DNA of 64,000 bases from Escherichia coli (lineage in GTDB: Bacteria > Pseudomonadota > Gammaproteobacteria > Enterobacterales > Enterobacteriaceae), in assembly GCF_011045215.1 (NCBI RefSeq), contig NZ_CP049201.1; one strand, given 5' to 3'. Under the pieces are notes generated by a model. That model ran no database searches. It had not been told where the DNA came from and worked only from the letters and a program-made list of their open reading frames with translations. Shown piece after piece: positions 52,173-57,839 of this stretch. The position numbers and the translations under genes were made by a program. The stretch's first letter is position 1. Each line of letters begins with the position of its first letter.

Positions 52173-52198
52173 AAAACCCGGCGCGGGGCCGGGTGAAC
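52173..52198 (-). terminator. Rho-independent terminator after island gene 52201-52764
   Basis: Minus strand reads ACCCGGCcccgcGCCGGGTTTTG; an identical hairpin recurs at 53821-53843. Confidence 0.55.
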
Positions 52199-52920: not shown

Positions 52921-52948
52921 TCAATAAAAAACCCAGCGCTATGGCTGG
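52921..52948 (-). terminator. Rho-independent terminator after island gene 52995-53723
   Basis: Minus strand CCCAGCcatagcGCTGGG followed by TTTTTTATTG. Confidence 0.55.
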
Positions 52949-52994
52949 GCTTCTCTTGATGGCTGGTTTTGTAGCTAATCGTTGGCTTTAAGGG

Positions 52995-53723
52995 TTAAGC
53001 AACAATATTAATCCCGCTCCTTGTCGCTGCCTCTTTGGCAATTTTCCCCTCGTCCTCCAGTTTAGCTAACGCCTTGTACATCCAGTGGCGGCCCGGTGCG
53101 CCATGCAGCTTGCCATCTTTGCCGATCTTACCGAACGCATGTAACGCCAAATCGTCGATAGTCCCCTTGTATCCGCCTTGCTCCTTAAGCCATTGCTCAA
53201 GCTGTTCTACTTTGAATTTTGCCGGACGTCCGCCAGCCGCTTTTTGTTGTTTAGCTGGTTCTTCTGCAATATCGCTTTTGTTGTTTAAGTCCGTCATGAC
53301 TGGTTCTCCTACAATAGCGTCGCCCTTGGTCTCGATTTGTTGATTAACTGGTTTGTCTACAATATCGATTTTGTTGTTTAGCTGGTTTTTCAACATATCA
53401 ATCTCAGCCTTTAGCGCCTCGTTTTCTCTGGCTAGTTCTTCGCAACGCTTGATAAATTTTTGTTCCATGCCGTCCGGGCTATCAACGTGCGCCGTACCCA
53501 TTACGATCTTCCCGTTGCTATCGAAGATGACAGCTTGCCAACCGACTGCGGCGAGCATTTTAAACACATCATCAGCGGTCTTGTTTGTTGTATCGCGACG
53601 CCCTTTAAACTTGTGGCTAGCAGCGCCTTTGCCTTTGAAGCCCATTGCCTCAGCGACATCTTGCCGCGTCATCTTGCGAGCGCGCTTGTTCATGCCTAAC
53701 TCAACCCAATCCATGTATTCCAT
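52995..53723 (-). CDS. Hypothetical island protein, basic N-terminus plus coiled-coil and internal repeats
   Basis: 242-aa ORF; repeated NNKIDIVDKPVNQQ / NNKSDIAEEPAKQQ segments, mirrored by imperfect DNA tandem repeats around 53280-53400. Confidence 0.55.
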   Translation of the reverse strand: MEYMDWVELGMNKRARKMTRQDVAEAMGFKGKGAASHKFKGRRDTTNKTADDVFKMLAAVGWQAVIFDSNGKIVMGTAHVDSPDGMEQKFIKRCEELARENEALKAEIDMLKNQLNNKIDIVDKPVNQQIETKGDAIVGEPVMTDLNNKSDIAEEPAKQQKAAGGRPAKFKVEQLEQWLKEQGGYKGTIDDLALHAFGKIGKDGKLHGAPGRHWMYKALAKLEDEGKIAKEAATRSGINIVA

Positions 53724-53820
53724 ACATTACCTCATTTTGTCGCTAAACGTTTTGCTTTCTAATTTATCAACAAAAAAGCGGGTGATGGTAGCCGCTTTGA
53801 TGGGGAAGTTGACAGGGATC

Positions 53821-53843
53821 AAAAACCCGGCGCGGGGCCGGGT
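53821..53843 (-). terminator. Rho-independent terminator (second copy of the 52173 hairpin)
   Basis: Minus strand ACCCGGCcccgcGCCGGGTTTTTGATC, just downstream of gene 53861-54091. Confidence 0.55.
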
Positions 53844-54545: not shown

Positions 54546-54648
54546 CGCGTGTACGTGAAATCTGGAAAATTTGCAGGGTAGTTGTTGAGGGATTTTTCGC
54601 GTAGGAGCGTGAAGGGTCCGCCAGTCATCGCCCTGACGTAGCGGTGAA

Positions 54649-55050
54649 TTACTTGCGAGGCTCACCCATCGGCCAGGCACCTTCATTGCGACGATAACCA
54701 ATCCGGTACTCTTCCGGCAGCGGCAAGCCCTGCTCACGATATGGACGCAGATCGAAGCCAAAAACAGGATCGTCGTCGTAGGCGAGGAATAGCCCGGCAG
54801 GCTCTGCCACGCGTTCGATAATCAGTTCCCCATCTTCAACGAAGAAGATCAGATTATCGCGAAAGTCCGTTACCTCACTGACGTGATAACATTCGGCATG
54901 TGCGTCCAGCCAGGCTTCTCGGTATTCCTGAATCTCGGCTTCTGACCATGTTGAAACAGGACGCTCCCAAATTCCCAGGCTGGATTTGCCCTGGCGGGAG
55001 AATAATTTTGCCTCTTTGCTCTGCTCTGGTTTTCTGTTTAAAAAGCTCAT
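54649..55050 (-). CDS. Hypothetical island protein (133 aa)
   Basis: ORF track; SD ggagaa upstream of ATG; start overlaps a TAA of an upstream open frame (TAATG). Confidence 0.5.
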   Translation of the reverse strand: MSFLNRKPEQSKEAKLFSRQGKSSLGIWERPVSTWSEAEIQEYREAWLDAHAECYHVSEVTDFRDNLIFFVEDGELIIERVAEPAGLFLAYDDDPVFGFDLRPYREQGLPLPEEYRIGYRRNEGAWPMGEPRK

Positions 55051-55186
55051 TATTCTTCTCCTTTGAACGGATTGTTCTTGCTCTCTAATAACTTAGCGCG
55101 ACCCAGTAACGTCCGGGCAAGCGCCTCCGCCTTCCTTAGCCTAAGCCCTGCGTCTTCTGCGTCCAGATCTACATTCCTGATAGCCT

Positions 55187-55450
55187 CTACAGCCTGCTCC
55201 GCTGCGTCCGGGCGTGAATCCACTTAAATATGCCGATATGCTCACGAAAGTCTGGATGCTCATATTGCCAGCGGCAGATTGTTCTGAAGCTCGGCATGTC
55301 AGGCATGTTGCCAATCTCTCTGAGACTATGGCCTTCAGCTACCAGCAAGCAGATTTCTTCAGCGATAGCGACCCCATACTTAGCGCTTTTTCTGCTTAAA
55401 CTTGTGACATCAACAGGTAAGTTATTGATTTCTTTATCATCACCCTTCAT
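55187..55450 (-). CDS. Hypothetical HTH-like island protein (87 aa)
   Basis: ORF track; SLREIGNMPDMPSFRTICRWQ segment is HTH-like; preceded by the 11-bp repeat array. Confidence 0.45.
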   Translation of the reverse strand: MKGDDKEINNLPVDVTSLSRKSAKYGVAIAEEICLLVAEGHSLREIGNMPDMPSFRTICRWQYEHPDFREHIGIFKWIHARTQRSRL

Positions 55451-55522
55451 AATTACCCCCGAATTGATAGCGAATTGATAGCGAATTACCCCGAATTACC
55501 CCCGAATTACCCCCGAATCACC
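55450..55522. repeat. Array of seven 10-11 bp direct repeats (gaattaccccc / gaattgatagc)
   Basis: taattaccccc, gaattgatagc x2, gaattacccc, gaattaccccc x2, gaatcacc, read directly from sequence. Confidence 0.9.
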
Positions 55523-55527
55523 ATCAT

Positions 55528-55809
55528 TTAACCCTCGCCTACGTCTGCGTCGATGCTTGCTAACTGGCTGTGTAGATCGCGTTCAATCATTTTTACCTTT
55601 TTCACAAAATCCCTTTCCTCGGCGGTGGCGGGCGCGCCCTGGGCTATGTTTTTCGTGAGGTCGTGGAAAGTGCCGAAAACATAAAGGGAGAACAGCCTTA
55701 ATTGTTGCCGCTTCATTGGCAAATCACTGTTGCTATGTTTGATCTCAGCGACGCCTTTCGAAATAACACGGGCCATCCCATGACAAATTCTTAACGTAAG
55801 CGCAGACAT
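55528..55809 (-). CDS. Hypothetical island protein (93 aa)
   Basis: ORF track only. Confidence 0.4.
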   Translation of the reverse strand: MSALTLRICHGMARVISKGVAEIKHSNSDLPMKRQQLRLFSLYVFGTFHDLTKNIAQGAPATAEERDFVKKVKMIERDLHSQLASIDADVGEG

Positions 55810-56277: not shown

Positions 56278-56721
56278 TTATTCCCCCATGTGGAAATAGT
56301 CATCTAAGCGGCGATTAAACTCGTCGCTGCCATCGAAATATTCACGGATACTTTTATTGACCAGATCATCACCGTCGAAATACTGGCGCGTGAAATCGTC
56401 CAATTCCCCATCGAAGTATTGACGTGTGAAATCGTCTAATTCCCCTTCAAAATATTGACGCGCATCAGGCGCTCTGTTTGGCGCTGTAGCAATCTCAGAT
56501 TGATTGCCCTGTAACTTATCGACGTTTGCTAAATACACGCCCAGTGAGCTGTTTGTTCCCATTACCGCAAGCATTTTCCGGCGATCTGCCATGTTCGGCG
56601 CGAGCGATGATAATTGAGCTTTAATTTTGTCCACTTCCTGATTAACAATACGGTCAATCAGTGGTTGATTCGTGCGAATAATTTCCTGTGCCAACTGGCG
56701 AATATATTCTTTGCGTGTCAT
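56278..56721 (-). CDS. Hypothetical island protein with tandem QYF[ED]GELDDFTR repeats (147 aa)
   Basis: ORF track; encoded by 36-bp tandem DNA repeats at about 56376-56463. Confidence 0.5.
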   Translation of the reverse strand: MTRKEYIRQLAQEIIRTNQPLIDRIVNQEVDKIKAQLSSLAPNMADRRKMLAVMGTNSSLGVYLANVDKLQGNQSEIATAPNRAPDARQYFEGELDDFTRQYFDGELDDFTRQYFDGDDLVNKSIREYFDGSDEFNRRLDDYFHMGE

Positions 56722-57780: not shown

Positions 57781-57839
57781 CCGCCCCCAGGGAAAGAAGA
57801 AAGAGGAAAGAGGAAAGAGGAAAAACTTCCTGGAGGCGG
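57781..57839. repeat. Homopurine heptamer repeat (GAAAGAR x4) inside an 11-bp inverted repeat
   Basis: ccgcccccagg [agggaaagaagaaagaggaaagaggaaagaggaaaaa] cttcctggaggcgg; 24-82 nt upstream of the AlpA-like start codon. Confidence 0.85.

Follow-up and report, generated by a model that had tools for sequence, protein, structure and literature searches.

Recognition of packaging sites by small terminase subunits is still unsettled. In phage lambda, the cosB site (R3-I1-R2-R1) places the small-terminase sites directly upstream of Nu1, together with an integration host factor (IHF) site that aids bending, and specificity is determined jointly by the site and by the N-terminal DNA-binding region of the protein; its R elements, 16 bp long and not arranged in tandem, are bound by a winged-helix dimer, and cosN lies beside them. 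The Staphylococcus aureus pathogenicity islands (SaPIs) encode a small terminase (TerS) while lacking a large terminase (TerL) of their own, and redirect the packaging motor of a helper phage to island DNA. Outside packaging, the parC site of plasmid R1 contains ten 11-bp iterons, on which ParR forms a curved polymeric scaffold that carries the DNA around its outside; the system also autoregulates. In the pac site of the Bacillus phages SPP1 and SF6, direct repeats span promoters and the beginning of the TerS gene (PMC4737164). A TerS ring has a diameter of about 90 A and a circumference of about 300 A; its neighbouring helix-turn-helix (HTH) domains are about one B-DNA turn apart, and recognition is thought to be a conformational selection of intrinsically bent DNA via many weak contacts (PMC4737164). 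The TerS of Shigella phage Sf6 is an octamer (PMC9611059). Here we describe a tandem array of 10-11-bp repeats in a 64,000-nucleotide stretch of an Escherichia coli genome (contig NZ_CP049201.1; the whole stretch is called the window). The array fills the spacer in front of a gene for a TerS-like protein, and comparison with related islands makes it a candidate recognition site for that protein.

The array occupies exactly the gap of 77 bp between the stop codon of a 93-aa open reading frame (ORF; TAA at 55530-55528) and the ATG of an 87-aa ORF (55450-55448), and both flanking genes are on the minus strand. Read 5' to 3' on that strand, it is made up of seven direct repeats of 10-11 bp each, namely ATGATGGTGATTC, GGGGGTAATTC, GGGGGTAATTC, GGGGTAATTC, GCTATCAATTC, GCTATCAATTC and GGGGGTAATT, followed by ATG. 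We refer to the GGGGGTAATTC units as A and to the GCTATCAATTC units as B, and to the version of the element that the window carries as W-type. Its parts are the following.

55451..55527, minus strand: the tandem array, W-type version of the family element; a 77-bp intercistronic spacer composed wholly of 10-11-nt direct repeats.
55515..55527, minus strand: degenerate leading unit ATGATGGTGATTC, which adjoins the upstream stop codon and is identical in 12 of 12 W-type loci.
55483..55514, minus strand: three A units, with GGGGGTAATTC at 55504-55514 and 55493-55503 and a 10-nt copy, GGGGTAATTC, at 55483-55492.
55461..55482, minus strand: two B units, GCTATCAATTC, at 55472-55482 and 55461-55471; relatives carry two or three.
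55451..55460, minus strand: last A unit, GGGGGTAATT, unchanged in every W-type locus; it serves at the same time as the Shine-Dalgarno region of the TerS-like gene.

Tandem Repeats Finder reported a period of 11 at 55460-55487 (score 56) and at 55482-55522 (score 68). The lag-11 self-identity of the array is 0.70 (z = 9.5), a value that none of 500 shuffles equalled. When any lag from 4 to 30 was allowed, the array was the top 77-nt segment of the window (0.71 vs 0.58 for the next best), the background for such segments having a mean of 0.377 and a standard deviation of 0.036. The Fourier power of its A/T-versus-G/C pattern peaks at 10.75 bp and is the highest among 720 island segments; none of 1000 shuffles reached it. 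These results confirm that the array is real and non-random, and that it is the strongest tandem periodicity in the window. A sequence-only reading of this DNA had proposed a 10-11-bp array filling the 77-bp spacer, and both the statistics and the seven units bear this out, with the refinement that one unit is 10 nt and not 11; the units it listed (gaattaccccc four times, gaattgatagc twice, and gaatcacc) are the plus-strand reading of those given above. The 10-nt A unit reflects a change from G5 to G4 that is absent from all 11 of the other W-type islands, in which two to four A units stand at the position of the window's three. The last unit provides a Shine-Dalgarno-like GGGGGT 5 nt ahead of the ATG, and the reverse complement of the B unit includes TAGCGA, the core of the TTAGCGA units that are found in sister islands.

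The 87-aa ORF, which the same reading had taken for a whole gene, turned out to be a truncated pseudogene fragment. This ORF (55187-55450) and an overlapping 57-aa ORF (55050-55223) are the two halves of one 133-aa TerS-like gene, in which one A has been deleted between 55210 and 55209 (relatives have GCCCAGGAC, the window GCCC-GGAC). In eight E. coli genomes carrying the segment, the gene after the array encodes 133 aa, and some of these genomes annotate the product as 'terminase small subunit-like protein'. WP_231290322 and WP_053275001 are intact W-type versions of it, and islands that are intact occur in E. coli C41 (NZ_CP127252), CFIAFB20180540 and OW1E2. The gene and a site inside it are placed as follows.

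55050..55450, minus strand: Sf6-type small-terminase-like (TerS-like) gene of the YffO family, a pseudogene here; assigned by homology, with a frameshift.
55418..55430, minus strand: perfect match to the IHF consensus AATCAATAACTTA (WATCAANNNNTTR), 20-32 nt inside the TerS-like coding sequence.

The intact TerS-like protein matches the Pfam family Sf6_terminase (PF20901, E = 1.3e-11) and the PHROG family phrog_1482, 'terminase small subunit'. Against the Protein Data Bank (PDB), its residues 23-107 align with Sf6 gp1 (3HEF/4DYC, E about 1e-11), the alignment ending at gp1 residue 99. The AlphaFold model of the protein as a monomer (predicted local distance difference test score, pLDDT, 83) has a disordered arm at residues 1-21, a three-helix HTH with helices at 27-38, 43-47 and 55-64, and two long helices, 66-92 and 101-126, predicted to form a hairpin that matches the oligomerisation core of Sf6-type TerS. 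The six best PDB matches of this model in Foldseek were all Sf6 gp1, with a probability of 1.00, a TM score of 0.50-0.56 over 109 columns and an identity of 27-28%. By homology and by its predicted fold, which includes the N-terminal HTH and the helical hairpin of Sf6-type TerS, the protein encoded downstream of the array is an Sf6-type small-terminase homologue. It is also 50% identical to YffO (b2446) of E. coli K-12, for which a resemblance to Sf6 gp1 and an AT-hook-like GRP motif have been described (PMC10380284). The GRP arm is kept in YffO (KKRGRP); the window's protein has lost it through a 4-aa gap.

The IHF consensus occurs at the same offset in all five of the W-type loci and in eight of the nine T-type loci (defined below) that were checked, and the codons flanking it vary. 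The B units themselves were considered as IHF sites and rejected, since they reach only 12 of 13 matches by eye and a scan for the exact consensus found no match in the array, its sole exact match being the one inside the gene. With respect to the wider protein family, many of 565 distant TerS-like relatives (P0012, P0015, P0024, P0025 and others) are proteins of 200-340 aa in which the HTH region of the query matches two to four separate places; such proteins may be tandem arrays of one DNA-binding module per chain.

The array lies in an island between eutA and eutB that carries an intZ-type integrase. This is the site of the K-12 cryptic prophage CPZ-55, and the window island belongs to the CPZ-55 family. 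The same segment is present at 94-98% identity in 8 of 5,426 complete E. coli genomes. For a broader comparison we used 36 family loci, the window included, whose TerS-like proteins are 41-100% identical. In every one of the 36, a spacer of 67-117 bp with a period of 10.5-11 bp is found directly upstream of the TerS-like gene, adjoining its ATG. The period is written in five spellings, AATTCGGGGGT/AATTCGCTATC, TTAGCGAnnCC, GTCAGAGAGGG and two phased A/T-tract versions, which define the following classes.

Class W, 12 loci, spacer 67-89 bp: two to four GGGGGTAATTC units, two or three GCTATCAATTC units, then the final A unit.
Class T, 14 loci, spacer 73-99 bp: four to seven full TTAGCGAnnCC-type units (14 distinct full-length units), then an ATG-proximal partial unit.
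Class S, 3 loci, spacer 81 bp: seven units of GTCAGAGAGGG / GTTAGCGAGGG.
A/T-tract class, K-12 lineage, 4 loci, spacer 117 bp: no exact repeats; A/T tracts every 10.5-11 bp.
A/T-tract class, second lineage, 3 loci, spacer 94 bp: no exact repeats; A/T tracts every 10.5-11 bp.

The lag-11 identity is significant in every repeat class (z = 3.8-13; none of 500 shuffles as high), and in the window and loci L001, L016 and L021 the spacer has the strongest 10.5-11-bp A/T periodicity of the whole 8-19-kb locus (0 of 1000 shuffles). In K-12 the element is the yffN-yffO spacer, an A/T-tract version of 117 bp with a period of ~10.5-11 bp (L031 5995-6111; NC_000913.3 2,561,994-2,562,110), and the spacer of L016 is 86% identical to it. 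Three diverged islands of the K-12 lineage have a spacer of exactly 117 bp that is 85.5-88% identical, as compared with 65-82% at the third codon positions of yffO. Because the spacer is more conserved than these positions, we conclude that the non-coding DNA is under purifying selection. The W-type loci, on the other hand, differ in copy number: five have the allele A2B2 (67 bp), three have A3B2 (78 bp; the window is one of these), three have A2B3 (78 bp) and one has A4B2 (89 bp). Replication slippage clearly shapes the W array. We also note that the stop codon upstream of the window's array overlaps a possible mini-ORF start (55515-55530, minus strand; TAAATGATGGTGATTCGGGGGTAA, encoding MMVIRG and a stop), and that an analogous TGATG, with a 9-codon ORF behind it that extends into the array, is present in some T-type islands and missing from others.

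At 14 distant phage TerS loci (28-50% identity) no comparable array was found upstream of the gene. The maximum A/T power anywhere in these loci was 2.79, vs 3.3-4.5 in the four A/T-phased family spacers, and their maximum lag identity was 0.50, vs 0.47-0.85 in the family repeat arrays. Gene 1 of phage Sf6 is preceded by 7 bp and has no array. The 14 loci and Sf6 together rule out the idea that such an array is a general property of Sf6-like TerS genes. A profile search of genome contigs with the TerS alignment gave no matches, and a metagenome search for the W-type junction gave one additional locus. Taken together, the 36 loci indicate that the array is a conserved non-coding element at the family level.

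If the array is read by a protein encoded in the island, then the sequence of that protein might be expected to follow the class of the array. The genes on either side of the array and the TerS-like gene are these.

55528..55809, minus strand: upstream 93-aa gene, function unassigned; its stop adjoins the array, and its sequence does not follow the array type.
54649..55050, minus strand: downstream 133-aa gene, function unassigned; its start overlaps the stop of the TerS-like gene (ATGA).

Compared with the W-type reference, the TerS-like protein is at least 98% identical in intact W loci, 70-91% identical in T loci and 42% identical in S loci, the window's frameshifted copy matching this reference only in part. 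The other genes behave differently. The upstream 93-aa protein is disfavoured as the binder, as its identity is 66-100% within the W islands yet still 65% in the S islands, and so is the downstream 133-aa protein, which remains 95-97% identical between islands of differing array type (W and T). The AlpA-like genes, other small ORFs and the integrase are mosaic and independent of array class; the AlpA-like proteins, which the sequence-only reading had suggested as possible readers, are therefore not supported in that role. Among the island genes compared, it is only the TerS-like protein that co-varies with the class of the array, which is suggestive of a functional pairing.

The W islands and their closest T islands show where this co-variation resides. 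In the TerS-like gene, the nucleotide identity between them is ~77% up to nt 90 and rises to 97-100% from there on into the next gene. The mosaic boundary thus falls ~90 nt into the coding sequence, which means that the array moves as one module with the first ~30 codons. Encoded in these codons are the disordered basic arm and the beginning of helix 1, which read RKS-AKYGVAI in W and RKR-AKYTIAL in T. A site that is exchanged together with the N-terminal part of a protein is the pattern expected if the two have co-evolved, as exemplified by the Nu1-cosB modules of lambda and phage 21; in the present case the pattern is suggestive but not conclusive.

One interpretation of these results is that the array is a docking track for a ring-shaped oligomer of the TerS-like protein, that is, a predicted pac/cosB-like recognition site that is possibly autoregulatory as well. 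We consider this the most likely explanation, and would put its chances at about even. A Cn-symmetric ring calls for direct repeats that are arranged head to tail at intervals of one helical turn, and it is for this reason that a docking track for a TerS-like ring is proposed; a dimeric regulator would instead need an inverted repeat. The TerS-like protein would assemble as a ring, like its octameric relative Sf6 gp1, and the DNA would be laid around the rim of the ring, with one contact of an N-terminal arm or HTH per repeat. At one contact per turn, the element would span 6-10.6 helical turns across the family; eight units of 11 bp amount to 88 bp, or about 300 A. The conserved IHF-consensus site, 20 bp past the array, may assist in bending the DNA. 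The complex would then mark island DNA for the large terminase of a helper phage, in the manner of a pac or cosB site, and it could also throttle the synthesis of the TerS-like protein, because the last unit overlaps the ribosome-binding site. In common with pac and cosB sites, the element adjoins a small-terminase gene (in 36 of 36 loci) and offers multiple phased contact points. We infer the binding of the TerS-like protein, the ring stoichiometry, the packaging and the autoregulation from these comparisons of sequence. The sequence-only reading had envisaged a helical-phase array for a protein binding one face of the DNA, with the adjacent HTH protein as the suspect, and had listed a packaging-type recognition site among its options. 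The first proposal gains partial support from the TerS homology, the conserved position and period and the co-variation seen with the TerS-like gene only, and the second would fit the comparative evidence, given the Sf6-type TerS homologue encoded downstream.

A number of observations weigh against a docking track. No gene for a large terminase, portal or capsid was found in any island examined, so that packaging would need a helper phage, and none is known for the island family. A collection of viral contigs contained no member of the family, only relatives at 28-50% identity, a result which does not bear on packaging itself. The C-terminal beta-barrel or stalk of Sf6 gp1 was not found in the TerS-like model, which has no strands and ends at residue 133; this part and an adjacent large terminase are the features of Sf6-type TerS that are missing here. 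The co-variation is suggestive and not conclusive because it rests on physical linkage and on few recombination events, essentially one between W and T. The recognition helix had to be rejected as the specificity determinant, since helix 3 (SFRTICRW) occurs with both W and T arrays; specificity for the array would have to reside in the arm and helix 1, or in the shape of the DNA. The sequence-only reading had named free variation in repeat number, with no effect on expression, as an outcome that would speak against a binding site, and 6, 7 and 8 units are indeed seen among near-identical islands, which amounts to half of that outcome; the differences are always whole 11-bp steps and the element is never lost. 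Finally, the A unit resembles the ATG-proximal ribosome-binding segment of sister islands (TTAACCGGGGGTAAATATG vs AATTCGGGGGTAATTATG), and slippage of such a segment would suffice to produce an array without selection.

A more far-reaching hypothesis is that the CPZ-55 family consists of unrecognised TerS-bearing phage satellites, the packaging signal of which is read by geometry and not by sequence. We regard this as doubtful. A TerS ring of this kind would accept any DNA with 6-10 contacts spaced 10.5-11 bp apart, which would explain how the element could be rewritten at least five times (AATTCGGGGGT, TTAGCGAnnCC, GTCAGAGAGGG and the two A/T-tract versions) at a fixed period, length and position. 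The number of units (6-8 here) would then be tuned to the stoichiometry of the ring.

Several other explanations of the array have to be weighed against a docking track. One could envision that the TerS-like protein has been repurposed as a regulator that uses the array solely to control its own synthesis, as an operator or a translational brake, by covering the ribosome-binding site or by forming a roadblock inside the operon, without any role in packaging. The overlap of the last unit with the Shine-Dalgarno region next to the ATG would suit such a brake, as would the lack of TerL, portal and capsid genes in the islands. In addition, CPZ-55 is regarded as a grounded prophage and a new DNA-binding role has been suggested for YffO (PMC10380284), and Greive et al. 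have proposed that TerS switches between transcription and packaging at pac (PMC4737164). We nevertheless think that this is unlikely. In the window, K-12, L014 and L018, which represent four classes, the coding strand of the spacer had neither a detectable sigma-70-type promoter nor an intrinsic terminator; for lack of a promoter in the spacer, the classical operator array that the sequence-only reading had also offered is not favoured. Moreover, 6-10 phased units far exceed what an operator needs, and the tape-measure-like gene, the weak match to an HK97-gp10-like protein and the HNH gene of many members (see below) point to a virion-related life style. Alternatively, the W array might be a neutral minisatellite, a slippage amplification of a ribosome-binding segment that has no function of its own. 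The near-identical units within an array, the likeness of the A unit to the ATG-proximal segment of sister arrays and the four copy-number alleles, which differ among 12 near-identical islands by whole units only, are what such an origin predicts. It is quite unlikely as a full account, however, because it does not explain the presence of the element in 36 of 36 loci, or five unrelated spellings with the same period, length range and position, two of which have no repeats but phased A/T tracts only. Nor would slippage alone be expected to produce units of 10-11 nt and never 9 or 12, or to place the K-12-lineage spacer under purifying selection at a fixed 117 bp. A unit number that differs between strains is also a trait of phase-variable simple-sequence contingency loci. 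The array is intercistronic, however, the last unit and the distance from the Shine-Dalgarno sequence to the ATG are constant and no promoter hexamers span it, so that unit number alters neither reading frame nor promoter spacing, as it does at such loci.

The track might also serve some other protein. Candidates are a host nucleoid protein acting on curved DNA (IHF, H-NS or Fis), the terminase or regulator of a helper phage, and the AlpA-like or 93-aa product of the island itself. Phased A/T tracts make curved DNA, a classic target of nucleoid proteins, and would suit them in this case too; an IHF consensus adjoins the array; and satellites that use the terminase of a helper are known, namely the E. 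coli phage-inducible chromosomal islands (PICIs) with cos sites. On the other side, no island gene apart from the TerS-like one is coupled to array class, the 93-aa, 133-aa and AlpA-like genes included; H-NS or an AT-hook would find poor targets in the GC-rich T and S units; and no second cluster of the unit core, such as a pacR-like partner, was found elsewhere in the islands. This alternative, too, we judge to be improbable. An element acting at the level of RNA, in which the 11-nt repeats of a polycistronic mRNA bind a protein or fold and thereby control translation of the TerS-like gene, is very unlikely. The array is transcribed inside the operon and its A units are Shine-Dalgarno-like, and a study that used systematic evolution of ligands by exponential enrichment (SELEX) and electrophoretic mobility shift assays (EMSA) reported that QorA binds a 27-nt yffO mRNA fragment, of unchecked position in the mRNA, in vitro with a dissociation constant (Kd) of about 7 uM (PMC10380284). 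However, the array has no Rfam match at E <= 1 and folds no better than shuffled sequences (z = +0.66), and the period is that of the DNA helix and is kept in classes without Shine-Dalgarno-like units. Least probable of all, to the point of being nearly negligible, are replication-origin iterons or a plasmid-type centromere. The tandem 11-bp direct repeats do match the anatomy of R1 parC, but the array has no gene for an initiator, ParM/ParR or ParA/ParB next to it, and neither a promoter within it nor an AT-rich unwinding element. No DnaA boxes were found near the array, the nearest DnaA-like boxes being at 53764 and 58555, and the only replication-type genes, a 75-aa winged HTH gene and a DUF5906 gene in some members, lie kilobases away. 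The iteron option of the sequence-only reading accordingly finds no support in its surroundings or in its 11-bp unit: origin iterons have units of 17-22 bp, as compared with 10-11 bp here, and the neighbours are the genes for the 93-aa protein and the TerS-like protein. Of the anatomy of a type II partition centromere only the 11-bp tandem repeats are present, the parM and parR genes and the embedded promoter being absent. In summary, neither an RNA fold, a promoter, a terminator, a DnaA box nor a neighbouring initiator gene finds support as an explanation of the array.

The islands of the relatives encode an AlpA-like regulator, often an HNH endonuclease, and a tape-measure-like protein of 726-790 aa (phrog_1538, E = 1e-105); in some, a product weakly matches an HK97-gp10-like head-tail adaptor in Pfam, or a gene of the DUF5906 primase type is present. 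A tape-measure-like gene in an island of 7-12 kb without capsid or terminase genes is odd. The window island lacks ~2.6 kb that include this gene (junction at 54608-54647 by comparison with L002 5918-8548). Relative to its closest relatives it thus has three lesions: the frameshift in the TerS-like gene, one A unit of 10 nt and the 2.6-kb deletion. The system in the window looks decayed; alternatively, some of the single-base differences are assembly errors. From the frameshift, the shortened unit and the loss of the tape-measure-like gene, we conclude that the window's array is probably a relic and that, whether through decay or through assembly errors in the record, it is probably no longer serviced by a protein of its own.

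Further observations concern the island and its surroundings. L001 (NZ_CM143725.1 773237-792039) is a near-identical island with the same intZ-type integrase, inserted in yghO and not in the eutA/eutB interval, which brings the chromosomal sites of the family to at least two. In the window, a heptamer repeat, (GGAAAGA) x4.7, is present on the plus strand at 57791-57823, about 35-65 bp ahead of ATG 57757, which is probably where the AlpA-like gene truly starts. The 96-aa AlpA-like ORF beginning at TTG 57862 is likely over-extended, and the heptamer could be a second repeat-based regulatory site, heading the operon. A 36-bp coding tandem repeat, x2.4, is found at 56375-56462 (minus strand) within a 147-aa ORF (56278-56721); its peptide is RQYFDGELDDFT/RQYFEGELDDFT, and its function is unassigned. 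Within a 242-aa ORF (52995-53723) for a putative HTH protein, direct repeats of 34-45 nt occur in three copies with 60-100% identity (53243-53414) and encode a KIDIVDKPVNQQ-like segment. Lastly, a perfect 22-nt direct repeat, AAAACCCGGCGCGGGGCCGGGT, is positioned at 52173-52194 and 53822-53843, with a third copy (68%) at 52928-52949, in gaps that immediately follow minus-strand ORFs; it has the look of a GC-rich hairpin or terminator module that has been used more than once.

The significance of the element lies in the natural series that the island family provides, in which one protein family is paired with five spellings of a phased track at the start of its gene. Within it are alleles of 6, 7 and 8 units, together with W/T mosaics in which nothing but the array and the first ~30 codons has been exchanged, and its K-12 member (yffO, with a 117-bp spacer) makes the element experimentally accessible. 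If the array is a docking track for the TerS-like protein, it would be a clean model substrate for the proposal that DNA is wrapped around a TerS ring, it would provide a function for the uncharacterised K-12 gene yffO, and it would suggest that 'cryptic prophages' of the CPZ-55 type are, or were, helper-dependent satellites. If it is not, then the array is a conserved phased element without explanation, still unusual for an intercistronic spacer. Neither the YffO paper (PMC10380284) nor the other literature that we searched mentions the spacer upstream of yffO, and our search found no paper that links CPZ-55, islands at the eutB site or PICIs to satellites or to such an array.

Among the known systems, the yffN-yffO spacer of CPZ-55 in K-12 belongs to the same island family (intZ, eutA/eutB) and is phased like the window's array, but it has A/T tracts in place of exact repeats. 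Sf6 gp1 (3HEF, 4DYC) is the closest solved relative of the protein and shares the HTH domain and the helical oligomerisation core; the two are no more than about 27-28% identical, the C-terminal beta-barrel is missing from the island protein and Sf6 gene 1 has no array. The SaPIs resemble the present islands in being small mobile elements with a TerS-like gene of their own and no TerL. Unlike the CPZ-55 family, for which no helper is known, they have a different TerS family, and a tape-measure-like gene is atypical of SaPIs or PICIs. R1 parC likewise has tandem 11-bp direct repeats, which are bound there by a small DNA-binding protein, ParR; this is a ribbon-helix-helix protein with ParM as its partner and its iterons flank a promoter, none of which is seen at the array. 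With lambda cosB, the element has in common candidate sites directly upstream of a small-terminase gene, plus an IHF site; it differs in that the IHF consensus is inside the gene and not between the repeats, and in that its units are tandem and of 10-11 bp. The pac site of SPP1 and SF6 (pacL, pacC and pacR; boxA, boxB and boxC; the G1P ring) likewise has direct repeats at or just before the start of the small-terminase gene. Both consist of AT/GC-phased DNA, intrinsically bent in the pac site, where many weak HTH contacts are made about one turn apart on a ring of ~300 A (PMC4737164). In contrast to pac, the family element is made up of clean head-to-tail 10-11-bp units, or of phased A/T tracts, in an intercistronic spacer with no detected promoter; its protein is of the Sf6 (Shigella phage) type, without a beta-barrel; and its host is an integrative island of 7-12 kb with no large terminase nearby, and not a phage. 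We think that the array is best placed among the pac/cosB-like elements, as a candidate phased recognition array for a ring of the small-terminase type, in an uncharacterised family of islands that includes CPZ-55 of K-12.

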